Of a stretch of DNA of 64,000 bases, positions 34,482 through 61,189 are shown one piece after another. The translations under genes and the position numbers were made by a program. The notes beneath the pieces were generated by a model, which was not told where the DNA came from, did not search any database, and saw only the letters and a program-made list of their open reading frames with translations. Source of the stretch: Vermamoeba vermiformis (taxonomy: Eukaryota); NCBI GenBank assembly GCA_045837725.1, contig JBEWZL010000239.1:558001-622000 (forward strand), given 5' to 3'. How positions within the stretch are numbered: position 1 is the first letter of the stretch; every line of letters begins with the position of its first letter.

Positions 34482-37400
34482 ATGTCTTGGCTCTTCAAAA
34501 AGAAAGATAAAGACAAAAAAGACAATGAACAGAAAGACACTACGGGAGATATCAGTCCACGCGATGAAGCTACGAAATCAAAACCGAAAGCGTTGGATCC
34601 GAAGTACGTTTCAGTAATTCAACAATTAAATCAAAAATACAATTTAAAAAAAGAAATTTCCATTAATTGACGACGTATTGATCGCGATATAGACCAATCT
34701 GATTTTATTTCATCACAGAAAAATCGATCATTTAGTACAGAAGCTCAAAGCGGAGTGGGAGCATTATATTGAAGCTAAAACGGACAAAGACAGACGATCA
34801 CGGCTTATATCAGTAGCGTCGCAGTTCATACGACTGTACGATGTAAAGAAATTAGAATTTCGTCAAATCAAGCAAGGGTAAGTCCACTACGACTGCTAAG
34901 GTCTTACTCGCTCGATCCACCACTCACTCCGCTACACAGTCTCGTACCCACTGAATTCGTGGCTGCACTCGTTCCCAAATTGACGGCAGAGCTCAATGCC
35001 AATCGCTCAGGCTTGCCGCGAGTGTTGTGCAGTGCCCCCTCCCCCCTCGCGGTGGCGCTCAATCACGTGATCATCGAAGAGAACGATGCACTGCGCGGTG
35101 TACTGGGCCTCGGTGCACTCGCCGATGAGATCACAGTCGCGCTGCAGAGTGTGCTAGATCTCAGCACTGCCGCGAGCACACAGCGCGAGAAGGCACTAGA
35201 TCTGACAGGTCCGCACAGTGCCATCGATGTGCTGGTCAATCTGCTGCTCTCGCTGTGCAGTCACGAGGACGCCATGGACGAGTTTGTGCGCTACGACACC
35301 CTCGATCACGTGCTCTCACTGCCCTTTCACGCCCTGCACTCGTCACCGCACCTCACTGCTGCGTCTCTCAAACTGCTGCTCGTGTCACGTGATCGCTTGT
35401 TGTCGGGGGTCAACACGCTGTTCAAATATCTGCACGTCGATGCGGTCACTCATCTCGTTAAAAAGGTGCGGTACAAATATGCTCATGCAGCCGTGGTCTC
35501 ACCATTCATTCTCAGAAATGGCTCGCCACAGTGCTAGCGACACTGAGTGATCCGAGCACCATGCCCGCAGAACACATTGTCGATATGAGCAGCACGATAT
35601 TCAAGTGTCTCAAAGAGTCGACGCGGTGCAGTGCCGCGCTGTTAGATCAGTTCAAAGAGCTGCAGGGCTATGCTGTCACACTCAAGCTCTTGCTGCACTT
35701 TGATCACGCGCACATTTCCAAGCCCGTCATGGTACGTGTCACATTCCAGCCACTACGCGTGTTGTACTGACCCTCGTTGCGTGCACAGAAGCAGTTCTTG
35801 GACCAAGTGACGGACTTTGTGTTCGTGGGCACGCGTGTGTTGAGCAGCAAGCTGTCCAGTCCCAAACTGCAACTCACCCCCGTGCTGACCAAGAGCTTGA
35901 GTCGTCGCGACAGCAGCATGCTCATGACAGCCACGCGAGAGATCAAGAACATCGACGCCTTCAAGCTGTTTCACGACTACTTCCTCAAGTCCGTGCACGA
36001 CGAGTTCAAGCTCTACGCCCTCGAGTGTGTCACGCAGATCTATGCCTCGCACCCCAACAACTTCCGCATCGTGGAGGAGTTTCATCTGCTCTCGCACTTG
36101 TTGCAAGCAGCGGCCTCGTCCTCAGCGAGTGTGCGGGTACGTTGCGTGCAGCTGTAGTGTTGTGGTACTAATGACTCGCACAGGATGCTATCATGAATCT
36201 ACTCGTGTTCGTGGTGACCAGTGGCATCAATTGCGTGGCCTATCAAGAGCTCGTGGGACTCAGCTGTCTCTTGCAGGGTATGTGATTGCCTTATATGGAT
36301 ATGTGACTGAGTTACCAAATATAGAACACCCCGTGGTGGAGGTGTGTCGTGCAGTGCAGCAGACGGTGCAGCGACTGATCACCTTCGACGCGCAGTTCGC
36401 AGATGTAATGACCGATGCCGGCATGCTGCAAGTGCTGATCACCCTCATGACGCGCATGGACAAGCAGATCAAGTCACTCACCGCCAAGAGTGATCGCAAG
36501 CAAATGAAGCTCATCTCCAGTGAACGGCCCATGACCTACGATGAAATGAGCACCGTGCTGCACACCCTCGCCCTCGTGCTCGAACACTCGCCGCGCAACA
36601 GAGAGTTGTTCCGCCACTCGTAAGTCATCACGTGCTCCTGTGTCTCCGATTCTCACCGAGTTATTCCGCAGTCGATCGGTGGTGGAATTATTTTCGCTGC
36701 TGAACTTCACCGAGACACGCAATGGCAGTCTGGCAGTGAGTGCGGCACTGATCCGCGACGACAATCAGAATGCAGAGGGCGAGACCAAGGCCCTGATCGA
36801 GTACTTCAATCAGCTGCAGGAGATCGATGCGCGTCATCACGTCCTGGTGGCACTTCACACCATTCTGCGCAGCACGTACTGCACCAAGGACTGGTTCAGA
36901 GCCTACGGTGGCTTCAAGGGCATCGAAGTGTCACTCGCGCAACTGCAGGGCAAGCTGGCTGATGACACGTCACGTGGCAGCGAGGCCATGATGCAGTACT
37001 TGCTCGCGATACTGCAGTGCACGGGTGCGGCCATTCACAATCACCAAGAGAACATTCTCTATCTGCGCGAGGACGTCAAATACGACACGATTGAGCGCGC
37101 GATTGTGCAGTCTGGTGTGTTGACGAGCAGCGATCAGCACGCCCTCACGGCACTGCACGCTCTCATCACCCTGGCCTGTCACGGCCGTGCTGCGAGTGAT
37201 CAGCACAGCATGCTCGAACAGCCTGAAGTCATCGCCCTCGCACTGCGCTGTGCCTTCAAGTGTTCGCAGCACACGCGCGAGGCATTCATTGGCACCCTCA
37301 CACAACTCGCGCAACAGTCGCGTGTGAACAGCGCAGTCATGTCGCAGGCAGGGGTCATCTCCATGCTCCTCGCTCAGCACGGTGCCGCAGTGCCCGCAGC

Positions 37401-40400
37401 GGTGTTGGAGCTGATTGAGATCTTGGCCAAGGTGTCCATCTCCGTCACCGAACTGGCGCAGTTAGTGCGACTCATGTCCTTCGACAATCACGAGCACGCC
37501 CTCACACGCGCCCTCTTGCGCATCTGTCACACAGCGCGCAGTCCTTCGTGCGTGTCGTTGAGCAATGCCGTGGAGGGCTGGAGCTGCTTGGAGCTGTTGA
37601 TCACCGATCGCTCGTGGCCCGTGGCTACCTCTTCAGGCTACACACTCATGTTCTGGTTCTGCATTGAGGCGTATGCCAGTGCGGACAATCACCTCGATGC
37701 ATTGTTCCGCTTGATACCCGAGGACAAGAAGAACATCATCTGTCTCTCGCTCAAGCAGGGCAAGCTGTTCCTGCACACCACTGCCAAGGAGTTTGTCGAT
37801 GTGAAGAGCGTGCTGTTCACGCCCGGCCAGTGGTACCACCTCATTCTGGTGCACGAGAAGAACAGATTCGCGCCTGGCTCGAGCGAGATCAAATTCTACG
37901 TGGACGGTGTGCTGCGTGCCACCGAAACACTCTCCTATCCTGCAGCGGTGTCCAATCGATTCACCGTGGAGTTCGGTACCTCCAAGAGCAATGCACTCGG
38001 ACCCTCCAATCAGCTCTGGCTGCTCGGTCCTAGCTACATGCTCGATGGCACGGTGGATGCGCGCGAGGCTCACATGATTGCCGCGCTGGGTCCGAGCTAT
38101 CATGGCAACTTTCAGGGCCCACTCGACATGTACCAGACCTACAGCACCATCAATGCGAAGAGTCTCTCGCTCGTCAGTACGTAATTCATTCATGCGCGTG
38201 TAGGGAGTGCTGATCTTGTGTCGATAGATGAGCTGGCAGGTGGCACACGTCCGCAGACACCTCTGGGCCACTTAGATCTCAGCAAGTCTCGGCTGAACAT
38301 CACCGAGGACCGCATTGTGTTCATGTTGAGTGCCTTCAATGTCAAGTACCGTACGTATCGCACTGTCCTAGTGTCGCTGAATATCGTCGCTGACTCGCTG
38401 CCGCCAAAGTGATGCAGAACAGTGACGAGCTGTCCCTCTCCACCGAAGATCTCATGGAAGAGGACTACGTGGCGTGGACTGCACGTCGCGAGCGTTCAGA
38501 GCCCAACTACCAGCACTGGGCAGTCATTCGTGGTCCGCGGCACCGTGTCGTCACTTCACCGCAGTCCCTCAACAGCTCGCGCTCCAGCAGTGCCGTCACT
38601 TCACCCCGAGCCTCGCGCATGGGCAGTGTCATCAACAGCATCACTGCCCTCGGTGCCCTCGGTGCGCTGGAGGCAGGGGACGTGTTCGCCAATCAACTCG
38701 CCCTCGCCCTCGGTGGTGCGCGGCTGTTGCACTCGATGCCCGTGGTGTCACTGTTCGCGTGCGTGGCAGGACATCGCTTGTTGCTGCACTACCTCGAGTG
38801 CGTGGATCATCCGCAGAGTGGTGCGAGTGTGTCGAGTGCGGAGGAGTGCAGCGAACACTTGAACTTGTTGCTGGCACTGTTCGTGGAGCTGTTGAGCGGT
38901 CCTGCCAGCAGCGTGAACATCCTGCTGTTTGAGCGCGCCAAGGTGTATCCGCTGCTCGAGTACATTCTCAGCTACAAGGGCTATCTGTTCAATGCCGACA
39001 CCGTCGTGCTGCTGTTCGACTTGTTGTGTGCCACGCGCAGCACGGGTCCCAAGTACTTCACCGCGAGCAGCACGCCGAGCAACAAGACGGATCTCAATGC
39101 AGCCACCATCGCCAATCCGTTCATTCTGCGCACGGTGATGATGAACTACGACGTGTGGCGTGCGAGCAGAGTGGAGATACGCCTCAAGTGGCTCAAGCAC
39201 CTCACGGAACTGCTCTCGGGCAACTTCCACAAGGAGTTCAATCTGTGGCGCATGCGCAAGTCACACGCCCTCTCCTCGCTGCTGTACATGCTCAGCGACG
39301 ACACACTCGACGAGGCACTCTTGTCGGGCGTGGTAGATCTCATCTCACACCTCGTGCACGGTGCTGCAGGACTCGACGATCTGCGCGCCCTCTCAGCGTA
39401 CATTGTGGCCACACTGCCGCAGACTGGGCCTGGTGCCCCGGTCAAGCCCAAGCTCAAGCGTACGTAGCTGCAGTTGTGTCGTGTGATATCTAATCGCTGC
39501 TCTCAGCGCGTGCCACAACGGTGCGCAACATGCTGCTCTCCATCGTGCTGGACGTGCTGCTGGGTCAGAAGTGCTCCGAGTCACACGTCAAGGTATGTCA
39601 CGCAGCTGGTATGGTGGGCCCAGCACTCACCTCTTGTGCAGATCTTTGACCCGCAGTGGACATTCCTGTTCATCGACTTCAATCTCGATGTCACCACTGT
39701 CACCTTGGCGCTAAAAATAGCCTGCACGCTGTACATAGACTCGGCGCACTTTGCCACCAAGTTCCGAGCGATGCACGGCTTTGCAGTGCTGCAGCGCATT
39801 CTGCCCTCGTTCAGCTACTGCGTGGACTTGTACTACATTGCCTTCTGCTTCGTGTACAACAAGCCACTGCACGCACTGCCAGCACAGCCCAGCGACTTCT
39901 TGGCCCTGTTCGATCTGTTCAAGGACGCAGCTGCGAGTCAGTCCAAAGAGATGTTCAGCGTCATATTTGCCATGCTCAAGAAGAGCTTTGAGCGCAGTCT
40001 CTCCACTGAGCGCGTCAGCATCTCCGAGAGTGAGCTGCAGCTCGTCAACAAGCGTGCCAGCATGATTCGGACCAGCTCCGATCATCACGTGATCAAGCCC
40101 ACAGGCCCTGCGAGTTGGAAGGGCGGCAGCGGAGGCTCGCTGTTGACGCAATCCATCTTCGTGTCGTGCGGCTTGGTGGACATGCTGAGCGGTCGTCCTC
40201 ATCGCGTGACAGTGGTGTCGAACAACGCCATGGCCACCAAGACCAATCAGAAGACACTGGTGCTCTTCTTGCGCCATCTGTTCAACACGAACAAGAAAGA
40301 GCTGTTTGACATGTTGATGACACGCGATGACACGCTCAATGATCTCGTGGACATGTTGTTCCCGACCGGCGCACTCAACTTGCCGCAGCACCCCAGCAGC

Positions 40401-43400
40401 GAGGACGAGTGTGCGAGCGATCAGAATGTGCTGGAGAGTGATCAGCAGATTGAGAGCGGACACTTGGTGTTTGATCTCTTGAGCTACATTGTCACCACGG
40501 CACTGCTCGATCAGAATCTCGTGCTCCTGGAACGAGTCGTAGAGCTCGCACCCCCCGTGAACATCAGTGACCGCGACTACGTGCGCTACATCAGCAAGCT
40601 GCTCACTGACGCCCTCAAGCACTTCCTCGTCACCGTGCACAAGGCTGATGTCGCGGCCAACAAGTACGAGCTGTTCTCCATGCTCGCTCGATTCGCCAGC
40701 TATGTGGTGGATAAGATCGCCATGGATCTGTTCCCAAGCGGCACGTCACACGTGTTCGATCTGTTGGTGCACTTGTTGGAGCTGTTCAACGTCGACAAGG
40801 CCCCGACAATAGATCCGCGCTTTGAAGTCACCTCGCTGTTCAAGTCACTGAACCGCACCATTCTGCTGATGCTCAAGTCGAGTGATCAGCTCATCGATGC
40901 ACTCAACAAGCTGCTCTATCATCAGCGTGTCGTGTTGTCACCGCTCAACAATGACACGGAATTCTTTTTCAATTTTTCACAGCTCACTTACCGCATGATG
41001 TTGCACGACAGCGATGAACTCAAGCTGACTGTCATGAATGTGCGTACTGCCAATCAAGTGTGCATATTATATATATATACTCACGTTGTCTATTGTCAGA
41101 TATGGAAGCTGTTGATCTTCACCAAGCCCGAAGTGATGGACTCGCTGTTGCTGTACAAGACGAGCAAGGGCGAGGTGATTGATCTCAAGACCAAGGGCTT
41201 CATGCTGCTCCTCTCGGCTGACCCCGCTGAATTCCTCACGTGGCTCAATCACAACATCAAGACCGTCAATGTCATCTTCGAAGAATTGCTCGCCAAGACT
41301 AACACAGCACCGAGCAGCGAACTCAAAGTGCGCACTGACAAGTTGAAGGCCCTCAAATCGCGTCGCTCAGCCAAGGCCTCCAAGCAGCAGAAGAGCGAGA
41401 CCAGCAGCATGACCAAGTTCCAAAAAGTGCGTGTCAATCGTCGCACGATGATTGCGCGCGTGAGTGACGAAGAGAATCAACGCCTCAAAACGGTGAAGAA
41501 CAACCGCGCTGATCGTGAGCGCTGGATTGCCAAGATCTGGAATGACATGCGCCGACCCATGTACATGCCCAACAGCAACAAGGACGTGAGCCTGAACAAG
41601 CTGCACCACACTGACAAGCCGCGCGGCAGTGAGGACGAAGAGATCAAGCTGCAAGAACTGACGCAACAGATCACTGCCAAGGTGCTCGACAAGTGGCAGC
41701 TCGATTTCACTGAAGGACCGCGTCGCATGCGCCGCAAGCTCGAGGTGAATGCGCAGTTCTTCGAGAGCTATCCGTACAGTCCCGACTACGACCCCGATGT
41801 CAATCACCACCTCGCTACAGAACAGGAGCTGATTCTCTATCCGACCAAGAAGCCGCTCAGTCACGACAGCAAGGAGTACTTCTACAGCTACAAGGACGCC
41901 GTGGACAAGTCACTCGAGTACTTGCATCGCGTGCAAGAGGAGATGAGCAAGCGACGTGCTGCACCACCCCTCACTCTCGCCCTCACCACCGCCACTGCAC
42001 CCAGTGCTGAGCGCGATGGCGTGCCTGTCACTGCTCGCTCGCCCGAAGAACGCCGCGCCCTAGCACACGTGCACGAGGCTTTTGAGGGCCGTGGAGGCAA
42101 TGACGAGTCCGACACACCGCCGTCCTCCTCGCCGCTGAACATCAAGCCCGTGCGCAAGATATCTTCTGCGTCAGCGGACAGCGAGGACAGCGACGACACG
42201 AGCACCAGTGCCACGCCGAGCAGTGTGCCGCACTCGCCTGCCCTGCGCAGTGAAGTCACGCCCAACAGTCTGGCAGCGTATCTGCAGTCACTGCTGATCG
42301 GCGAGGACGTGGAGAGCGATGAGAGTGCGACGGACGAGCAGAGTGAGCTCACGGAGGGCTCCGACGAGGACTGGCCGTCAGAAGCAGATCCAGCGAGTGA
42401 AGTGGGCGAGGACGAGCTCGATCAAGATGTGTTCGGCGAGGACGAGGACGATGAAGACGCCAATCAGCTCATCTTGCGTCGTCACTTGGAGCTGGGCGAT
42501 GCAGCGGTGGCCATGTACAACTGCGGCCGCATTGAAGGGCTGGACAAGTACGACGGACTGCTCATCTTCGGCGAGATCAACGTCTACTTTATCGATCACT
42601 ATTCACTCACCGCAGAGGGCGACATTATCGACATTTCTGCGCAGTCCAAGCGCGCGACACCCTTCATCAACTACACGAGCACGTGGGCGCACGAAGACAT
42701 CAAAGCTGTGATGAAGCGGCGCTATCTGCTGCGACCAGTGGCCCTCGAACTATTCGCGAGTGATGGTCGCAATTGTCTGCTCGTGTTTGAACTCAAAGAC
42801 CGAGATCCGCTCTACGACCGCTTCCTGGCCCTGATCAAACAAGTGCGCGATGGACAGCAACAGTCACTGGCTGCCATGATTGGTCTCAACAACCCCACTG
42901 CAGCCACCACCGAGCTGCAAGAGCTGGAGCTGAGCTACACGCCCCTCGAGAACTTGCATCTGCCGCTCAAAGTGGTGACGCACAAGTGGGTGCAGGGCGA
43001 GATCAGCAACTTCCACTACCTCATCTACCTCAACACCATCGCTGGACGCAGCTACAACGACCTCACGCAGTACCCTGTGTTCCCCTGGGTGCTCAACACG
43101 TACGACACACCGAGCATTGATCTGCACGATGCAGCCGTGTACCGCGCACTCGACAAGCCGATGGGTGGCCTGGACGAGGAGCGCGCAGACAAGTTCCGTC
43201 AGAAGTACGAGGTGCTGGAACAGACGCTGCACGAGACTGCGAGTGAGAGCAGTGCTGATGACCCCGAGCACATGGCTCCCTATCACTACGGCAGTCACTA
43301 CAGCAGCAGTGGCACGGTGCTGCACTATCTCATTCGATTGGAGCCCTTCACGCGGCAGTTCATTCAGTTCCAGGGCGGCAGATTCGATCACCCCGATCGC

Positions 43401-45022
43401 CTCTTCCACTCGATCAGCGAGTCGTGGCAGAGTGCCAGCGCCAAGAACATGATGGACGTCAAAGAACTCATCCCTGAATTCTTTTACCTCTCGGACTTCT
43501 TGCTCAACTCCAATCGATTCATATTTGGCAAGCGACAGGACGGCTCGGTGGTCAATCACGTGGTGTTGCCTGCCTGGGCTAAAAATAGTCCGCGCTACTT
43601 TGTGCACTTGCATCGCCGCGCACTGGAGAGCGAGCACGTGTCCAATCAGCTGCACCTGTGGATCGATCTCATCTTTGGCGCCAAGCAGCGCGGCAGTGAG
43701 GCAGTGCAGGCCCTGAATGTGTTCCATCCCCTCACCTACGAGGGCACCGTCGATGTGGATCGCATCGATGACCCGATCAAGCGACGTGCCATCATCGATC
43801 AGATCAATCACTTCGGTCAGACCCCCGCTCAACTCTTCACCAAGGCACATCCCAAGCGCGCTGCACGCACTGAACAGCGCGGTCTGTTTGATGTGAGCAC
43901 GAGTGCTGTGGCCGTGAATGTGAAGACACTGACGCAAGCTGTCGGGGAGATGCGCGTGGTGCACGACAAGTTGATCGCGCTCGAGCTCAAAAAGGTAAAA
44001 CATCCATTGCCTAATTAGGACATTGACTGACACTGGACTAGCGCGTGTTGCAAGCCGTGAACAACAGCATCAAGTGGGTCACATGGGGATACGAGGACTA
44101 CACAGTGCGCGTGTGGGAGAACGACAAGCTGCTGCAGATCATTGATCGCGGGGCCTGGGATCAGATCCAACACGTCGCCACGTCCATCGATGGCAAGTAC
44201 TTGGCACTGGCTGGTGGCCGCGACTGCGTGCTGTCCATCTATCGCTTGCGAATGCGCAATGTGTGGCGCCAAGCTGAAGAGACCGCAGAGGAGTCGGCAC
44301 TGACACCGACCACCAAGAAAAAGAAGCGTGGTCTGGCCCTGGGACTGACAGCCCTCAAGTTGATTGCACAGCCGCAGCTTATGATGCACAAAGACAGCTT
44401 TGAGTGGTGGTCCAATCTGCTCGCCCATCAAGCCCCCATCACTGCCGTAGACATCTCGCGTCGCTGGTCCATCATCGCGTCAGGCGATCAGAACGGCAAG
44501 TTGTGCGTGTGGGACCTCAACAAGCGATTCAATGCCGTCGTGTGGCAACGCGACACCTCACTCGGCCCGCACTACTTGGGCGATGAACCGACCTCGCGCG
44601 GTGTCAATTTGATTGCTGTCAATGCTGTCACCGGCGACATTGTCACGTGTTTCAGCACGTGGTTCAATCTGTGGACGATCAACGGCGAGCTCATTCTCGC
44701 GCACAACACCTCCAATTCACCCGCGCAACAGATCACCAGTGTGAGTTGGATGCCAGGCGCGACACAGACCGATGAGATCTATGCTGTCGTCACGGGACAT
44801 CGCGATGGCACCATCAAGGTGTGGAAGTTCAATCACCTCGACAAGGAACTGCGCCCCAATCCCAATATGGTCATGCTCGCACAACTGCAACAACACCGCT
44901 CAGCCATCACCTCGCTGTGCGTCTCTGAACGGCGCATCATCTCAGGCGATCACGTGGGTCAGATCTACGCCTGGCTGACCAAAGACGATGCAGAAGAGTT
45001 CATCAAGAAGAAAAAATTCTAA
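34482..45022 (+). CDS. BEACH-domain protein (LvsA/WDFY3-like: ARM, ConA/LamG, PH-BEACH, WD40)
   Basis: LamG-like segment GYTLMFWF...WYHLILVH. PH-BEACH motifs RRYLLRPVALELF, GRSYNDLTQYPVFPW, HYGSHYSS, DVKELIPEFF and FGQTP. C-terminal WD40 repeats, with no FYVE domain seen. Confidence 0.93.
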
Positions 45023-45091
45023 ATTTTGCGAATATGTAAAGTACAATGTAAATACTGTAGAAATACGCTACATTTATGTAATTACAGTGCC

Positions 45092-47847
45092 CTATTTATT
45101 TACATGCCAGGCAGCGATGAGTTGTGGCCCCAAGCTGAGCGTGACGGGCAGCAGCGGCGAGTAGTGTTTGATGCCGCTCTTGTTCGCAGCACTCTGATAC
45201 TGCTCCACGCACTTCACTGCCACGCGCCACAGCTCTTCTTCGCTGTGTTGGGCCCAGTACTCGAGCCACTGTGCCACCGACTTGTTCAGCACACTCGGAG
45301 GTCTCTCCGCACCGAGTCGTGACAGCAAGTGGTGCCACACCAGCGAGGGGGGCAGTCGTGACACCTCTGGCAATGTGCCACTGATCTCCGCACTATCTCG
45401 GAACAGCAGCTGTTTGAACCACTTGATCCATTGCAGTTGTGCACACGGTTCACTGAACAGCGCCATGACACTCACTTCAAACTGCGCGATGTCACCTGTC
45501 AGTGTCAATTTGCCACTGCCTTCGAGGGGTGGCAACAGACTCACGTGACGCAAGAACAGTTCTGTCAACCTGCCCACACGTCAGTTGAGTGTTTGCAAGA
45601 ATTTTGTTGCCTTACCAAGCCTGTGTTGCGCGCACTTTGTCAATTATGTACGGTGTTTGCATTAATTTGTCGAGCAGTGCCTTGAACTGCTGCAATTGCC
45701 TTTTTAGGAGCTTCATGTAGGGCGACACGAAGCTATTATTAGCCACATCGCTGTCAGTGCTCGCGGTGAATTCAGTCTTCTGCATCATCTGCAGCGTCTT
45801 CTCACAGCTCTTCATGAATCGACCAAACAGTGGCTCGGTGACACTCTGATTGATCACGTGCTCGATCTGATCAATGGATTCGCGCAAAGGTTGCATGAGT
45901 GCCGCGGAATAAGTCGCCAACACAGTGTCACGTGTGTGCTGAATGAACTGCACGACACTGTTGTGCAAGATCACGTGATTGGAGTGCCACGTGACACCAT
46001 CGCTGCCCTGGTTGATGGATGTGTCACGTGCCACTGCCTCGCTCACTTTGGTGCTGAGTGGTCGCAGTGCACTGCACACCGTTTTGACCAATCGTTGACC
46101 GAGAGTGTCGGTGCCGTCGAGTGAAGTCGGGTACAACAGACACTTGTCGATGAGCTGTTTGATCACGTGACTGCACTGCAACAACTCTGCCAAATACGGA
46201 CATTTCTCCGCGTCCTCCACCACGACAGTCGCGGCAGTGTTGGGTGCAGCGAGTTTGGCGAGTTTGTTGAAGCAGAGCTCCACGCCGCGGAACACCGTGT
46301 TGCGCGTGCTGGTGTGGTACTCGCTCTCTGCGGCACTGAACACCTCGCGCAACTGTCGCGTCGCACTGTCACGTGACTGCTTCGAGGTCTTGGTGCGCAC
46401 TTGCACTTGATCAAATTGCGCGTCTATTTTTAGCGACAAGTCAGCGAGCAGTGCGTAGACACGTGGGTACTCGAGTGCGAGGGCCTCGTACTGCATGGGA
46501 CTGGCGTTGACTGATTTGACGCGAATCACGTGACTGATCATTTCACTGAAGTGCGTGCTGAAGGACTTCCAAAACGAGCGAATGAACAGCTCGTCGATCA
46601 CGTGAAGAGTGTCCAGTTCAAAGTCACGTGATTCGTGTCCGAGTTGTTCCGCAAGCAACGAGACAATATTTGCATTAATTCTATCAGGCACGTGCAATCT
46701 GACGACAGCACGCATGATGGTGATGAGTTCGCTCCACTTGTCTTCAATCTTGTCGCTGATCTTGCCCAGCACCGTCCAAATAGAGCCTGTCACGTGACTG
46801 GCAGCACGTGGCAGTGGAGAGCCAGTGAGGCTATTATTAGCGCGAGAATCGGTGCGCGCAGCTGCATTGTGACTCTGATAGCTCTTCATGAACAGTGCCT
46901 GCATCTCCGCGGAGATCGCATTGATCACGTGGTGGTGTTTGACTTTGTGTTGACCAGTGCCGAGAGCCAGCTGCGTGGCCGCAAAGGTGAGCAGATCTTG
47001 CACAATCACGTGCACACTGAGGTGCAACATGTCGAGCAGCATATTGAAGTGATAGAACACGAGCAGCGCGGTCGAGATCACGTGATGACTGCGCAGTTCG
47101 ATGCCCTTCATGAACGCGCTCACAGCCTGTTCCAGCACGCTGTTCTTGCGCGCACTGAGCTGCAGCTGCATTCGCTCGATCACGTGCACGCCCTGCAGCT
47201 CCGCACTGCTGCCGAGGAGATCGCACTGCACCAAGTACTGCGCGGCACGAATCAGCTGTTCACCGCTCTCACTCGATTGCAGCGCACTCAACTTCTTCCA
47301 CAGTGTCATGTACTGACCCACACGACGCAGCACGTGACTCGCTTCTTGCACACGTGGCAGTTGGCGCGTGCGTGTGGCGAGCAGTTGCGCGGGGCCAGTG
47401 AGCTGTGTGGCGACACGCGTGACTTGACTCTGCAGCTGTGTGACGGACTGCGACACCTCGCGCACTGATTGGTCGAGTCCTGCAGCTGTTTCGAGTGCCC
47501 CTGCCTCGCGTAACAGCGATTCTTTGCCACCTGCGATCTGTGAGACAGATTCAGTCGTCGAGCTAGACGTCACATTATTCAGCTGTGACTGACCTGCAAT
47601 TTTATCAATTGATCGAGTTGAAATAATGACGATGCTAAAAAGTCATTCTTCTTCGTCTCTGACAGAAAGTGCTGGATGTACTTGCCAACCTCGAAGTCCT
47701 CTGAGAAGAAGTCGCGATATCTCTCTATGAAAATTGTACATGAATATATGCCGAATTTCTACATCGTGTAATGAATTCATTACCATCTTGCTTGAACTGG
47801 ATCAGCGCTTGTTCAGGATCCAAAATTGGCTCTGCACCATTATCCAT
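45092..47847 (-). CDS. COG5: Conserved oligomeric Golgi complex subunit 5
   Basis: N-terminal FFSEDFEVGKY, coiled coil, and C-terminal FLRHVSLLPPLEGSGKLTLTGDIAQFE and WFKQLLF. Confidence 0.8.
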
Positions 47848-48022
47848 AATTGCGCTATTCTAGTCACCTCAAATTCATATAAATCAACGCACGACAATAA
47901 GTCCCTGTTGTAGTTGCGTGCGTTCAAAGGTTTGAAATAAAGAAATTTGCGACAAGGCGCAGAACAATCACACCCGCGTATTATATATAAGGGTCGTTTT
48001 TATGTTGATTACAAGAGCGTCT

Positions 48023-54257: not shown

Positions 54258-54886
54258 TACTATACAATAAGATTAAGTCACTATTTTTGCATCATGTTTG
54301 CAGATCTACTATGACTTTACTAATGCACCAAAAAACTTGAATTAAATATATAAGATAGTACCCCCCATATACATTATATATGTATAATAAGAGCCCTTAT
54401 ATAGAGGGTGTGTCCTATGGCGGTCCTGCACAAGATCCAGATCTAAAAAAATTCAAAACTCTTACAAATATTTTCTGGAATCTCAGGACAGTGCCAAAAT
54501 TTCGAAAATCAATTATAATAACATATTGTAATTATATTGGGCCTTCTAAGTAGGGTACAACTTACCTCTAAGTTTTCTCTCAGTCTTTGGCTTAGATCTG
54601 ACTTTAATTAATGATGTAATTGAAATTTAATATATTTCTAACAGGTATTTATTAGTGTTACAATTATAACCCTGTTAGTGGGTGATGATACTGCAATAAA
54701 AAAAAAAATAAAAAAGTGGGTTACCAGGATTTGAACCTGGGACTTCTGTGTGATTGCCAACCATCGGAAGGTATTGTAAAAACCCATTTGGGTGTATTTC
54801 ATTTATTCTTTGTGTGTAAAGTTTTCTTTTGCTTTTCTATTGTTCTTCAGTTTATTAGGCAGAATTAGCTAACACCAGAATAAATA

Positions 54887-56327
54887 TCAAAGTTTGTTTG
54901 CAAGTAAGAAGGCAGTACGGAATGAGCTGTCTGCCTCTGCTTGCTGCTGTTGTTGTAGAATTGTCATGAACTGGGCCTGTTGCTGTGCCATAGAGTGTCT
55001 GTGCTGCATTTGCTGCAACTCCAGTATACTTTGGAGATATTGGTTGCTTGCATTGTTTGCAGTATTCAACACAGAAGTGGGAACTGGGCTGGGTGTCAAT
55101 CCTGTAGTTTGAGGACTCAAGTGGACAGCTGGAACTCCAACTAATTCAGTTGTGTTAGTGGCAGCAGTGGGTGCAGCTTGCGGTGGTGGGAGCTTTGGTA
55201 ATGTTGGCTTGTGAATGGACTTTGTCTTGTTCTTAAGTGGGATAACTTCATCTTCTGACTCTGATGGAGAAAAACTTTGCAATTGTCGTCGTTTGACCAA
55301 AGAAGGCTCTACTACAGCAATAGGTCTCTTCTGATCTTTAGCAACAAGTCCCTTGCTTGCTCCTGTAAACGTCTTTGTCAAAACCTATCGGTAATAGAAT
55401 TTGCTACCTTTTTTGCTTGGCGCAGCTGGCTTTACCAGTGTTCTTGAGGCATGTACTGGCTGGGTCCTAGAAGCCTTTTTTGCTGGCTCTGTTTTCACAG
55501 TAGGTTTTGGAGAGACTTTTCTAGTCTGGACAACGTAAATAAATAGGGTTATTTTGTTTCTGACATACCTTTGCTGCATAATAAGCCTTAAACAATTCAT
55601 CCAGGCACTCCTTTTGACTATTGCTAGCTTTGCCTTCAACTGACTTGACATCACTGAACTTGACTTCAATTACAGATTTAAGGGAAGGATCTGCAAGGAG
55701 AACCTTGTTGAATTGCTTATTGCGAATGATGAATAGCACTGTATGCAAGCCAATGACATTTTTTACAACCACTGTATCTCCAACTTCGACAGCAAAGTCA
55801 TCCATCCGCCGAGTCACTTTATAATAATAATTGCCATTCCAAGGCTCTCCATGGTACTTGTAGAACTCAGTATATACCTCTAAATCAGCAACAAGTCAGA
55901 GTTGATCCAACAATGCCTTATTACTTACCTTTGTCATCGGCAGAGTTCAGCCCGCGGAAGGAAGATTTTTCTTCTTGGACAGTGTCATTGCTTACTATAA
56001 TTGATTTATGTATGAGTAACACTTACAATAATAAATTAATATGTACCTTCATTATTGGAGTTACCAATAGGAATTTTGGTTTGCCGATCAGGATCGAGGG
56101 ACTCAATTTTTTCTTCTAGCCATTAAAAATTAGTTTCCTTATAAATAAAGAGACATCATAATGTTGGGAAAATTATAGAATAATTAAGAGAGTTAATTAC
56201 CAGCTATTAATGATTCCCGAGTGGATTTTGGACTGGGCGGGGGATTTTGCTTTGGCTGCTGGGCTTCACTGTCAACTGATGCAGCAGTAGGGTTGTCAAT
56301 TAATACCTTGTCAGTATCCTCACTCAT
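54887..56327 (-). CDS. Transposon accessory protein: acidic N-terminus, BAH/SH3-like beta-barrel, Pro/Gln-rich tail (multi-exon)
   Basis: ATG at 56327 (MSEDTDKV...). Exons join through GT-AG introns to NYYKVTRRMDDFAVEVGDTVVVKNVIGLHTVLFII...IEVKFSDV and then to ORFs 55385-55669 and 54887-55381. Confidence 0.6.
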
Positions 56328-57174
56328 TGTGGTGTTCATGTAATGATTTCCGAGGACAATTGGATTTGGTTACCCATAAAAGGAAATTAACCAGGGCACT
56401 TGCTACGGAGAAGTTATTTGACCATTATTTCATTCCAATAATACCATTAAACAACACCTATAGTTCAAATCACCTATTATATACCTCATACAACACATCA
56501 TTATCAAGGCAACTCAATGGATTCAAAACTAATGTAAGTCAAGGTGGATTTAACTTTACATCTTGCTCGGAAATTATTACATATGAAGACATATATCAAT
56601 TTATAATTATATATGCATTACAATAATTTAAATATGCTAGTTTAATGGCTATTTTGAATTTTTGAGGAGAAAATTGATGGCATAATTTCATATCCAGCTC
56701 GGAAATTGTTAGGTATCAACATAATACATAATAATAACATATGTATGCTGCTTATATTATATATATCCCATATCTATCATTTTGGGGCTGATCATTGCAT
56801 ATTCAAAAAGCCTATTATCTGTTCTGTCTCGTGCACCAGTCAAATCCTTGCCGTAAGAGGGTTTTCAATCTATAGTATCATTACTAATTAACCAAATTGT
56901 TTCAAACATGGTGTATGCATTTGTACATATACAATGAGCAATACTAAAGCTTTGATATATATTTTAAAGATAGTTTTGCTAGTTCAGTTCTGCCGATCTA
57001 GATCAGACAAGATCCACTACTCATGAGTAAAAGAGAATTGAAGTAACTCCTATCCCTATTCATTGTGCTTACAATTATTTATGCTATTAGTAATGGCAGT
57101 AGCTGGACTATTGAGTTAATGCAAGTAAAGTTCTCTCAGGTCATCTTTGTTGACAATTTCTGTGCCTTACCCAG

Positions 57175-57470
57175 ACTTTGCCGAACTCTATTAAGTATAT
57201 ATATGGTATTACAATACCTCATGTAGTTTATGTATGCAATTGATTTTGGTAAGAAAAATCATGATTGCCCAACACTGGTGTAACGTAACTTTAACTTCAA
57301 CTTCGTGTGCAGCACGACTTTGCCGAACTCAACTAAATATAATGCTGGCAGTTATTCATTGCATCTAATATATATATAGCACTGTTATGGCTAGCTAAAA
57401 TCGTAGGGGTTCACAGTGGTGCGCATCAACCCTCTTGCTGCTGACGTAAAACAGCACTACTTTGCCGAAC
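57175..57470 (+). repeat. Degenerate 142-bp tandem repeat with a conserved ACTTTGCCGAAC core
   Basis: The exact 12-mer occurs at 57175, 57317 and 57459 (spacing 142, 142). Units 1 and 2 align weakly along their length. Confidence 0.75.
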
Positions 57471-57585
57471 GACTCTTACTATTCTATGCTATTGATCATC
57501 ATATAATGATACAAAATTGACCAACAATATAGATTTTAAAAATCACTATTCATGTGCAGTTCATTAATACTGTTACTTCAGGAAA

Positions 57586-60500
57586 ATGACATTCCAAGGC
57601 TTTCAATGGGGCTCTAACAGTAAGTTAAGCACTATTAATAGAATGACCTAACAATGGTAGATATGAATGACCTATGCACTATTGAGACAGTTGGCTTCGT
57701 TCTTCGGCTAGTGCTGCAAAAATTGCCAGGACACAAGTTTGAGAGTGACTTTTTTAAACTATTGACGGGTTGGATTAATAATGGACCACTATCCAATGAA
57801 AGGCTACACCAATTAAAATTGGATCTGATAGATGCCCTTGGTCCTGTTGTAGGCTGGGTGCCTTGCAAGACTTATGTCTCAATTGGTGCAATACTCACGG
57901 CAGCTTTCAAAACTCTGTCAATTGCCGAATCAGCATTATTTGTCTCTACTCTTAAAGTTGTTAGCCACTGCAAATGTCCTACAACAACAAAGCTATTTCA
58001 TCAAGTGGCAGTTTTTGTTGAAGAAAAACTGACTGACAGTACACTCTCACTCCAAGCTGCACTCAACCACTTAGCAGACTACAACTGCCAGCTACCCATC
58101 AACTGCTATGATTGTGGAATACAACCTGTTGAACATCGTAAGTTCAATTAGAAGAAATGAATTTGATATTAAACTGTGTAGGTACATTGGAGTTGCCACA
58201 AGTTTTGACTGTCGAGTTAGGAAGACTCAAAAGGCAATTTAGCAACCCAAATATAACCATCGAGCCAGTTTTAACTGTCAACAATTGTCAGTATTACCTA
58301 TTAGCTGTAATGATGTGCCCACACTACATGCTATTTTGTGCAACAGTCAGTCTTGTATTTCTATGATGGCATGCAAAATGAAGGAATTGCCACTCCAGTG
58401 GCAGAAACACTTGAAACAAGCAAATCTAAGATATATTATGACCACATTGTGTACTTAAAACGACAGGTAATTTAACCTGGTTTAGTTCTTCTAAGCATTA
58501 ACTCTTGGTAGAATTCTGCACCTGTTTCGAAAGCCATCAATGCAAAAGACCTATTTACTACCTTGCAAGTGCAGCCAGAAAGTACCCCAATTGCCTCGCA
58601 GAATCTGTTCCAAGTCCTAACAAAGAATATCATTCCATCTGAAAAACTCAAGTCATTAAAAAAACAAAAGTTACTTGGGGCTGATTCAATTAACAAAGGT
58701 ACTTATAACTTGCAAATTTTACATCTAACTAACATTTTCCAGTTGCAGCTACAAACTGTTGTAAGGCTAGATGTACTGAACTCTTCACTACCAGCCAGAT
58801 TCTGGAAAGCCGCAAGATGGTGGCTGAGCTCAATGACAGTCAGAAAACTAAGTGGCTGATGAAATTTTTTGAAACAAACATGAACATTGATAGCCCAGCT
58901 GTTGCTTTCCTGGTAGGAGGTGTATCAGTTTGTCAGCTTGCATTTTGCAGAGTTTATGGAGTGTCTGTCGACAAGGTTATTCAATGCAAGCAACAATACC
59001 TAAATGGAACAAAGGCTCATATGCATGGTAATTGCTTTCGGGTGTATGACTCCCCAAAGAGAGACTCAGTAGCCGCTTGGATCCAAAACTATTGCAATAC
59101 ATATGGTGATTATGTGCCAACTAAAGATGAAATTCACTTACCATCACACATGACGTAAGTTCTTGTTCTGATACTGTGATTGCTAACCAATGCAAGTGTG
59201 AAGGAATGGTACAATCTGTTTTCTGGTGAATTTGCCAATCTTCACCCAGGAGCTGACACACCAAGCTATGAAACTTTCAAGCAGGTCAAGCGCAAATGGT
59301 TTGCAGTAAGTTACTATGTGCATCTTTCAATTTTGCTAAAGATTTTAGAATGTTAAACGCCCGAAGGAGACTCGACTTGGCAAATGTTCAACCTGTTTAT
59401 TGATTAAACAACGGCGACTACAGTGCCCTTCAGAAGATAAGCTGTTGCAATTGAAACAGCAGATGAATGAACACATAGATTATATTACAAAGGACAGACA
59501 GATGTATCGGCAAAGAGCAGATATTGCCATTAAGCAACCCTTCTTGAAGATGAGCATCATTACAGACAAAAGTGGCAGTTTTCAACTTCCTCAGCACCAT
59601 CCAATGCCAAAAGAATGGGCGAATATTAACCTTTTGCAAGCAAGCTTTGTAGGCTTCATTAACCACGGGCTGAACAAGAAAGAGTTAGTGTTTTTCAAGG
59701 AGTCTGATTACATTGCAGATGCAGACTTTTACATCTCACTCCTGTTCCATCATTTGAAAGAATCTTTGCTATCAATTCAACCACAAAATAGACCGACAAC
59801 ACTGTATTTACAAGTAGATAACAGTGCAGCTGAAGGCAAAAATCAATATTTGCTTCAATTTGCAGCATTACTAGTGCACAATGAGTGGTTTGAAGAGGTT
59901 TTCATTCATTATTTACAACCTGGCCACACACATGAAGATATTGACCGACTATTTCAACCATTTCATACTTACTTCCAATGGAAAGTTATTGAAACTATGA
60001 ATGATGCTATTACATTTGCAAAGTCAATCTATCCCAAGGATGTGTATATTCATGAACTCCAATGGCCCATTCTTTCCTGGAAAAAGTGGTTTCTCACATT
60101 CTGCTCATCAATGAGTGGTCACAAAGACAAATATGCTTTTTGGCTAAAGAAAGGACTTGATGGCACTCCAACACTCCTGTTCAAACAAAAATCTCTCGAT
60201 GAAAATTGGATTGAAGTTGAAGAATCAGTGTTTAGTCATTCTCCGTCAGCCGAACCTGTAGCACTTCAACCAAACCCTGTGTCCAAGGAGTTGATAGCCA
60301 CAATAGTGACAAAGACCTCTAAATTTCTTTCTGAAAAGGTGAGGATTGTACTTTACTATTCAGTTACTAACATGTTGCAGGGCATCGAATATTACAAAGG
60401 TCTGGAGAGAACAGAAGAGGTGAAAGTTATGACAGAATTGTTCCAGATTGGCCAAGTTAAACGTGAAGGACCAGAGCTTGTGGTCTCATCAGAAAAAGAA

Positions 60501-60777
60501 CCAACAATGGTCAATTTAAAGAAGCGCAAACGGCAGGTTGAAGGTACCTTCAAATCATAGGTTTATTCTTAATTGTTACTCATTTTTGTTTGCAGATGAG
60601 GCAGAATGGGTAGTTAAAAGTATTATAGACCACCGAAAAGTTGGACGTAAGTTAGAGTGGCTGGTACTTTGGGACGGAGGACAACAGTCCTGGGAGCCAC
60701 GTAATTGCTTCATAGATGCAGACCAAAGCAAGAATGAAGTATGGGCTGACTATGAAAAGAAGAGATTGAGCAAATGA
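57586..60777 (+). CDS. Fusion of a USP-like cysteine protease, a Sola-type DDD transposase and a C-terminal chromodomain; apparent frameshift near 58327
   Basis: Protease part: GFQWGSN..C, CKC/CYDC, LPQVLTVEL, YYLLAV..HY/TCYF..FYDGM. Transposase part: CCKARC, VCQLAFCRVYGVS, HGN, GDYVP..IHLP, KCSTC, IITD, LQVDNS..EGKN, GHTHEDID. Chromodomain: EWVVKSIIDHR..LEWLVLWDG..SWEP. Confidence 0.8.
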
Positions 60778-61189
60778 TAGTCTAAAATAAATGAAATATA
60801 CCCAACTGGGTTTTTACAATACCTTTCGATAACCCCCATTTCCACTACCTGCTTCCGGATAGCCGAAACGCTCCGGATAGCCGAGCCGAGCCGGACCGGC
60901 CATCCCCCGATAGCTCAAATAGCACACAATTTTTGGATAGGATGTTAAACTGTTCTTTGTGCCCCAAACATGTCCTGGTTGCAAAAATACGTTATTTTCT
61001 TGATAAAGACGCTGAAATTACATCCATTAGCCACAATATCCAACTTTCCAATGTATGGTGATTACAATTCTTTCTCTATCTCCAGTGGCTGGAAGCTGAT
61101 GTGGATAGAAAGTTCATACCTAGTAGTATCCTATATATGCTCTGCCTACTGCAGCAAACAGAATTGAATTTCGTTAATTACTAACTTCA

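Follow-up and report, generated by a model that had tools for sequence, protein, structure and literature searches.

At positions 54763-60830 of the analyzed stretch of Vermamoeba vermiformis DNA (contig JBEWZL010000239.1, positions 558,001-622,000; 64,000 nt, hereafter the window), one transposon copy of about 6.1 kb was found. It is very probably a cut-and-paste DNA transposon, a mode of movement that we infer, whose transposase contains a core of the DUF7869 family with a module of the ubiquitin-specific protease (USP) fold in front of it and a chromodomain behind it, and which has a second, divergently oriented gene (open reading frame 2, ORF2) for a BAH-like protein. The coordinates of the features are collected in Table 1.

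The ends of the element were originally predicted as terminal inverted repeats (TIRs) with an AACC target site duplication (TSD), and both were confirmed. The 45-nt arms agree at 42/45 positions, AACC stands directly outside both of them, and neither the duplication nor the inverted repeat can be extended. The 24-nt terminus occurs at only two sites in the 64-kb window, and two matches were obtained in 0/100 shuffles. When the window was compared with itself, no additional copy of the element, whole or partial, was seen. Six related loci (L001-L006) were obtained by scanning metagenome contigs with the N-terminal exon of the transposase gene; they showed 65.5-77.4% DNA identity to the window over long stretches and short TIR-end matches of up to 93%. 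Judged by their sequences, these loci are diverged copies of the same element family. The terminus is kept in L004 and L005, and the family TIR ends in these two loci have differing flanks. The flanks at the TSD position in relatives were ACTA/ACTT (3/4 match) and ATTT, only three sites being examined. The first of these pairs flanks a 1.09-kb segment of L005 (positions 1243-2335) that is bounded by the family TIRs, has no similarity to the coding parts and probably represents a non-autonomous derivative. A copy of the element truncated at its 5' end is found about 95 bp away.

By its sequence, the transposase is a member of the widespread DUF7869 family (PF25273), with a predicted RNase H-type D..DN..D triad. 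The triad Asp residues are located within the motifs I.D, Q.DN...KN and GHTH.D.D and are spaced 84 and 42 residues apart. In the non-gap rows of a 159-row family alignment, they were conserved in 135/135, 151/151 and 146/147 sequences, which upholds the earlier proposal of a transposase core with a DDD triad. An exhaustive HMMER search with the core exon returned 2233 proteins at E<=1e-3 and 19 at E<=1e-30; no longer, full-length relatives of the exon scored. The named DUF7869 relatives came from Thecamoeba transcriptome assemblies, Mytilus, a sea-urchin-type record and Branchiostoma, and each was labelled uncharacterized. A Pfam scan was performed for 133 (32, then 101) of the best 150 core relatives, 17 sequences shorter than 250 aa being left out, and DUF7869 was seen in every scanned relative except one 178-aa fragment. 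UCH or Chromo domains were found in 0/133 of them, the additional domains being limited to one C48 fragment, one MYND, one kinase and one MBT. Similarity to the N-terminal module was detected by phmmer and jackhmmer in 0/150 of the best core relatives. The DUF7869 profile gave no transposase match in PDB and only a weak RFX5 row (E 0.026). The latter concerns exons 5-7 (~59050-59380) and the RFX5 DNA-binding domain, which is a hint of a winged-helix DNA-binding domain upstream of the core in DUF7869 transposases. The term DUF7869 or PF25273 was in no paper found by full-text literature search. With the present element, the family gains a concrete context, namely as the putative catalytic core in elements that have TIRs and 4-bp TSDs.

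Sola elements are TIR transposons with a DDD transposase and a 4-bp TSD, and the original prediction assigned the element to an undescribed lineage of this superfamily. The invariant Asp triad and the 4-bp TSD found here fit such an assignment, being features that are not exclusive to Sola. The ATCG termini, on the other hand, differ from the usual Sola2/3 termini, according to the original prediction; PMC4455052 states no termini for Sola. The Sola1 target preference AWWT/AWDT, given in the relevant passage of PMC3845634 with reference to Bao 2009, also disagrees with AACC in the window and with ACTA/ACTT and ATTT in the relatives (three sites). According to the relevant part of PMC5751038, Sola cores were without a Pfam model as of 2017, so a recent DUF family could be a Sola core. 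Here the core is filed under DUF7869, and the chances that the element is a Sola lineage are about even.

The N-terminal module has a predicted USP fold, as was shown using P0154, a relative that covers the whole module by reading through an in-frame intron. Five relatives of the first large exon were available, with 57-79% identity. In the ESM Atlas, P0154 was placed beside USP/UCH-named clusters (0.96 and 0.95, with 189 and 187 shared features). The AlphaFold model of P0154, built from a seven-row alignment, had a predicted local distance difference test score (pLDDT) of 63 and a predicted template modelling score (pTM) of 0.68; its helical and beta-sheet parts reached pLDDT 70-85 and its middle, the fingers region, was below 50. 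A Foldseek search of PDB with this model gave 72 matches at E<=1e-3, the best being USP18 (E 7.8e-7, TM 0.52). USP-type catalytic domains made up 43/44 rows listed, and the remaining row was a yeast splicing factor. After rescoring of the Foldseek list with VIA-align, USP-family entries occupied 50/50 rows (Z 14.5-16.7, 212-240 aligned residues, root-mean-square deviation 3.5-5.5), with USPL1, USP35, USP30, USP18 and USP46 at the top. The USP-like papain-fold module of the original prediction is supported by these structural comparisons.

The placement of the candidate catalytic Cys was derived from the aligned ranges and entry titles, a gap-free alignment being assumed. Residue 1 of the model aligns with the position four before the catalytic Cys named in USP35 C450S, Ubp8 C146A, USP14 C114S, USP30 C77A and CYLD C596S, so the Cys of the DLC motif (residue 5) falls at the catalytic position. 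This residue is located at the start of the first helix and is invariant in 5/5 aligned sequences. The PC.TYVS motif, taken in the original prediction for the Cys region, lies later, in the thumb. At the place of the zinc ribbon, the fingers contain CxC and CxxC cysteine pairs, which are followed by the LPQVL (LP..L) strand. A predicted beta hairpin holds at its open end the candidate His and the Asp of the YDG motif, which lie at a distance of 15 residues from each other and are kept in five of five covering relatives. This distance matches the 15-17 residues that we take to separate the catalytic His from Asp/Asn in papain-fold and USP enzymes. In addition, the conserved 34-nt mini-exon gives an Asn five residues before the candidate Cys.

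A working Cys/His/Asp triad is thus plausible on the predicted structure. The opposite case, in which the module is catalytically dead and serves as a reader of ubiquitin or a ubiquitin-like modifier or in another structural role, is rather unlikely. It is favoured by the missing Pfam UCH match and by the medium confidence of the model around the active site. In addition, where the USP His box would presumably have its first His, P0154, L001, L002, L003 and L004 have a Cys. The invariance of the Cys at the structurally catalytic position, the conserved His and Asp flanking a hairpin as in papain-fold enzymes and the Asn of the mini-exon argue for an active enzyme.

The last exon of the transposase gene encodes a divergent chromodomain. 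A phmmer search of PDB matched it to the chromodomains of CBX1, CBX5, CBX3 and HP1, with CBX1 as the best match (E 4.6e-4), and chromodomain proteins accounted for 26/30 of the matches. The domain is 91.5% identical in L004.

The transposase gene was read in nine exons, which begin with the ATG at 57586 and end with the TGA at 60776-60778, eight bases short of the right TIR, and the modules follow in the order USP-fold module, DUF7869 DDD core and chromodomain. All the motifs quoted in the original prediction (LPQVL, YDG, D..DN..GHTHEDID and the chromodomain-like tail) belong to exons of the + strand that are connected by phase-compatible introns. The KKRKR basic patch between the core and the chromodomain would correspond to a nuclear localisation signal-like sequence. 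L001, L003 and L004 contain the same exons in the same order as the window gene, and L004 continues through the chromodomain exon to the right TIR. GT..AG was present at 16/18 projected junctions of these three loci, and intron lengths drift between 43 and 50 nt. The exceptions are a junction in L001, whose projection relied on a partial match, and one in L004 with a mutated acceptor. The 34-nt exon 1 and the conserved AG directly before it (57576-57586) are kept in six of six loci. An extra upstream exon or an intron in the 5' untranslated region of the gene is possible because exon 1 of L001 and L002 has no ATG. According to this comparison, a single conserved exon chain comprises all three modules. 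This part of the earlier claim of one spliced gene has stood, while the single mRNA was not recovered from the RNA data considered below, so splicing and a single mRNA rest on comparative evidence.

The original prediction described the element as complete, which is not the case for the window copy. The frame of exon 3 changes between 58318 and 58320, in the part of the USP His box that separates a conserved Cys from the candidate catalytic His. Three in-frame codons were present at this site in L001, L002, L003, L004 and protein P0154. In the sequencing run X4, an aquifer metagenome from another study, 8 extra letters follow position 58316 at a depth of 8.5. The X4 Logan contigs cover 28/30 bins of the stretch, 13/19 compared contigs are at least 99% alike, and X4 matches the right flank up to 60908. 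The window copy thus appears to carry an 8-nt deletion, an assembly error being possible, and its protein would stop after ~250 residues. As sequenced, this copy cannot make the full-length transposase, and a near-identical unbroken copy exists in another sample. A small intron (donor GTCAGT ~58297, acceptor near 58350) was also considered as the cause of the frame change. It was rejected, since L001-L004 and P0154 read straight through the site and X4 contains the 8 extra nt.

To evaluate selection, ratios of nonsynonymous to synonymous substitution rates (dN/dS) were estimated between the window and L003, L004, L005 or L006, comparisons with L001 and L002 being saturated. The ratios, which are rough because dS was mostly >1, amounted to 0.10-0.12, 0.11 and 0.04 for the USP exons, 0.18-0.22 for the linker exon 4 (58512-58698), 0.07-0.09 for the N-terminal transposase exons, 0.03-0.04 for the core, 0.29 for exon 8 and 0.06 for the chromodomain (vs L004). 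The ORF2 domain had 0.10 (vs L006) and the next ORF2 exon 0.18. On these estimates, every module is under purifying selection.

The constraint on the linker exon bears on the question of whether captured host USP, transposase and chromodomain genes stand in a row and are separately transcribed and spliced. Such an arrangement is in line with the three RNA runs, none of which joins the modules, and with the scanned DUF7869 proteins, in which the core works without UCH and Chromo. It is nevertheless very unlikely, given that the eight introns are phase-compatible, that no stop besides that caused by the 8-nt deletion separates the modules, that the exon chain and its junctions are kept in L001, L003 and L004, and that the chromodomain exon begins in phase 1 without its own start codon. 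That the pair of genes is a domesticated host pair and not a mobile element, as the strong purifying selection and the single copy in the window might suggest, can practically be dismissed in view of the TIRs with a TSD, the conserved TIR ends with different flanks in other contigs, the TIR-bounded derivative in L005, the independent inactivating lesions in different copies and the many diverged paralogue-like copies in metagenomes.

The original account of a single gene missed ORF2, an intact antisense gene (56339-54887). Its product has an acidic low-complexity start, a conserved domain of 103 aa and a long Lys/Pro- and Gln-rich tail, and the gene is conserved in L003, L005 and L006. Eight relatives of the domain (P0169-P0176) were found, with 66-98% identity; one of them and one relative of the USP exon, each on a 7139-nt contig, probably share a contig. 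AlphaFold2 modelled the domain as a beta barrel with a helix at the C-terminus (pLDDT 75.9). Foldseek gave weak matches (E 0.04-0.2), mostly to BAH and PWWP domains. In an independent, wide VIA search of 48,161 chains, the top 11 rows all contained BAH domains (Z 6.6-8.4, 74-91 residues aligned), and the entries included EBS, AIPP3, Rsc2, ASH1L, ORC1, DNMT1 BAH1, TNRC18 and MET1. No Pfam match to the domain was found, and the ESM Atlas gave only a weak DUF3104 lead (0.82). In ORF2 exon 1 (56339-56201), dN/dS was ~1.3-1.4 with a low dS (0.16-0.2) vs L003, L005 and L006, compared with dS >1 elsewhere. The low dS means that this DNA is conserved beyond coding need; possible explanations are an overlapping cis element or a wrongly assigned frame or start.

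The array of ACTTTGCCGAAC copies is located in the 1.2 kb that separate the divergently oriented genes. An 11-nt core of this motif is kept 343-345 nt upstream of exon 2 in L001 (935-945 and 1077-1087), L003 (1111-1121), L004 (673-683) and L006 (2612-2622), and the second copy in L001 is located 142 nt further upstream. The position of the motif relative to exon 2 is constant, though the copies are otherwise ~66-77% identical. The array may represent putative promoter or transposase-binding sites.

A number of results weigh against the reading of the element as a cut-and-paste transposon with these modules. Neither an empty site nor a second perfect TSD pair was found, and exon 2 is frameshifted in L003 and L004, with a stop codon in L003 as well. 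Pfam gave no match in the N-terminal exon translations at E up to 1 and no UCH (PF00443) in P0152, P0153 and P0154 up to E 10, and the profile of the N-terminal module produced only chance-level rows against PDB sequences. The P0154 model is of medium quality and belongs to a relative with an intron read through; the His and Asp were assigned from predicted hairpin geometry and the presumed triad spacing rather than from a residue-level alignment. For the chromodomain, which the original prediction had named and the PDB search supports, the Pfam Chromo score (16.8 bits, E 0.0065) is below the cut-off of 25.1. On the CBX1 alignment, the positions that we take to form the aromatic cage hold two Trp and, at the third, apparently Gly. 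The Z of 8.4 for the BAH-like domain is within the range reachable by unrelated models. Finally, both genes had essentially zero depth in three RNA-seq runs labelled with the same species, of which 46-48% each was read and whose strain possibly lacks the element. Each of these runs gave 8-12 partial reads, all at the A-rich stretch 54686-54908, and no RNA run was listed as containing the stretch among indexed sequencing runs.

With the element read as a DUF7869 cut-and-paste transposon, the transposase gene of this lineage has probably gained two modules, an N-terminal one of USP type and a C-terminal chromodomain. The most likely mode of action would be as follows. The DDD core would cut at the ATCG...CGAT termini and integrate the element by staggered cleavage over 4 bp. 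The chromodomain, possibly together with the BAH-like ORF2 protein, might tether the transposition complex to histone-marked chromatin in a chromovirus-like manner, and the USP module might bind or remove ubiquitin or a ubiquitin-like modifier, either on target chromatin or on the transposase itself. Histone-mark reading and the removal of ubiquitin/SUMO at the target, as put forward in the original prediction, may thus belong to its mode of action. In its strongest form, this would mean that the lineage of DDD transposons has put together a chromatin toolkit of its own from a chromodomain, a BAH-like reader and an active USP deubiquitinase, by which integration is steered to a histone-mark state and a ubiquitin-type mark is erased or the transposase protected from degradation. 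We consider this form unlikely. If true, the mark could be erased, e.g., on histones or on host proteins for silencing or repair, and the protein would be the first case of a deubiquitinase built into a cut-and-paste transposase. Ulp1/OTU proteases recur in transposons in a largely obscure role, and chromodomain targeting is established mainly for LTR retrotransposons. The element would provide a compact system for studying how a DNA transposon reads chromatin to choose targets and what a deubiquitinase does for a mobile element. The existence in nature of a near-identical copy without the 8-nt deletion makes these questions experimentally approachable.

Table 1. Features of the transposon and its two genes in the 64-kb window.
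Feature	Position	Strand	Details
Left TSD copy, AACC	54759-54762	.	Directly outside left TIR
Left TIR, starts ATCG	54763-54807	+	45 nt, 42/45 identical to right arm
Right TIR	60786-60830	-	45 nt, 42/45 identical to left arm
Right TSD copy, AACC	60831-60834	.	Directly outside right TIR
Transposase gene, nine exons	57586-60778	+	GT..AG introns of 41-52 nt, phase-compatible
Transposase exons 1-3	57586-57619, 57661-58137, 58182-58466	+	GT..AG junctions
Transposase exons 4-6	58512-58698, 58743-59154, 59197-59305	+	GT..AG junctions
Transposase exons 7-9	59349-60338, 60381-60543, 60596-60778	+	TGA stop ends exon 9
Predicted USP-fold (peptidase C19-like) module	57586-58466	+	P0154 model, Foldseek, VIA, ESM Atlas
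Candidate catalytic Cys codon	57675-57677	+	Invariant Cys of DLC motif, model residue 5
Frameshift site, 8 nt missing	58317-58319	+	Between conserved Cys and candidate catalytic His of USP His box
Candidate His codon	58320-58322	+	Predicted hairpin geometry
Candidate Asp codon (YDG motif)	58365-58367	+	Predicted hairpin geometry
Core exon	59349-60338	+	330 aa
CxxC upstream in core exon	59385-59396	+	Shared with relatives
Pfam DUF7869 (PF25273)	~59613-60194	+	133.7 bits vs cut-off 26
Invariant Asp codons	59565-59567, 59817-59819, 59943-59945	+	Family alignment
KKRKR basic patch between core and chromodomain	60516-60530	+	Read from translation
Divergent C-terminal chromodomain	60596-60775	+	Last exon, 59 aa
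Three copies of 12-nt motif ACTTTGCCGAAC	57175-57186, 57317-57328, 57459-57470	+	Spaced exactly 142 bp
ORF2, six exons, intact	56339-54887	-	392 aa; GT..AG at five introns, open frame
ORF2 exons 1-3	56339-56201, 56115-56047, 55994-55929	-	GT..AG junctions
ORF2 exons 4-6	55879-55569, 55525-55408, 55362-54887	-	GT..AG junctions
BAH-like beta-barrel domain of ORF2	55569-55877	-	103 aa; AlphaFold2 model, VIA search

The insertion site (54700-54762 and 60835-60900) resembles the reverse complement of a tRNA-like 3' half with a GGTTCAAATCC-type box, followed by an A/T run, and it may be a repeat similar to short interspersed nuclear elements. A 43-nt segment at 51340-51382 matches it weakly, and an 18-nt unit is tandemly repeated at 60855-60895. 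ARAGORN found no tRNA in the window or in the reconstructed empty site, and no Rfam match to the insertion site was obtained at E up to 1. Elsewhere, the window contains ordinary eukaryotic genes, including those for Sec7/GBF1-like, Slu7, BEACH-domain, COG5 and leucine-rich repeat proteins. The G+C content is 52-58% at 36000-48000 (the long BEACH-domain gene and its neighbours) vs 35-48% elsewhere, and that of the element is 35-43%.

A comparison with known systems indicated the following similarities and differences. The element shares the DDD-type triad and the 4-bp TSD with Sola1-3 and differs from Sola, on the basis of descriptions, in its AACC target (vs AWWT for Sola1), its ATCG termini and its additional USP and chromodomain modules. 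The ORF2 barrel is shorter than BAH readers (103 aa vs 157-242 for single-domain BAH entries); it has no sequence-level match to them, and its Z is in the grey zone. Like cellular USPs, the N-terminal module has a thumb, fingers and palm over 212-240 residues, a Cys at the start of the first helix, two Cys pairs at the zinc ribbon, the LP..L strand and the His/Asp hairpin, whereas it is only ~270 aa long, is 10-18% identical to the nearest structures and is undetected by Pfam UCH. The motifs Q.DN...KN and GHTH.D.D and the upstream CxxC are common to the transposase and other DUF7869 proteins; however, UCH/Chromo domains occur in 0/133 of the scanned proteins, and the transposase of the element has both module types.

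In chromoviruses (Ty3/Gypsy), the chromodomain is likewise located at the C-terminus of a DNA-integrating enzyme, and Gao et al. reportedly described in 2008 that the chromodomain of the chromovirus integrase tethers it to marked chromatin. There, the enzyme is a retroviral-type integrase, whereas here it is a putative cut-and-paste DDD transposase, and only two of the three presumed cage positions of its chromodomain are aromatic. Ulp1/C48 proteases occur in Mutator-like, Ginger and Zisupton elements, and OTU proteases occur in others. Both OTU and C48 are listed as transposon accessory domains in the part of PMC5751038 that deals with them. A full-text literature search, with subscription papers and Repbase Reports outside its range, revealed no paper on a USP-transposase fusion or a USP/DDD/chromodomain architecture. 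The element thus resembles protease-carrying transposons in combining a predicted clan-CA cysteine protease for ubiquitin or ubiquitin-like proteins with a DNA transposon, but where those carry C48 or OTU, the present element has a USP (C19) fold, fused in frame to its transposase.

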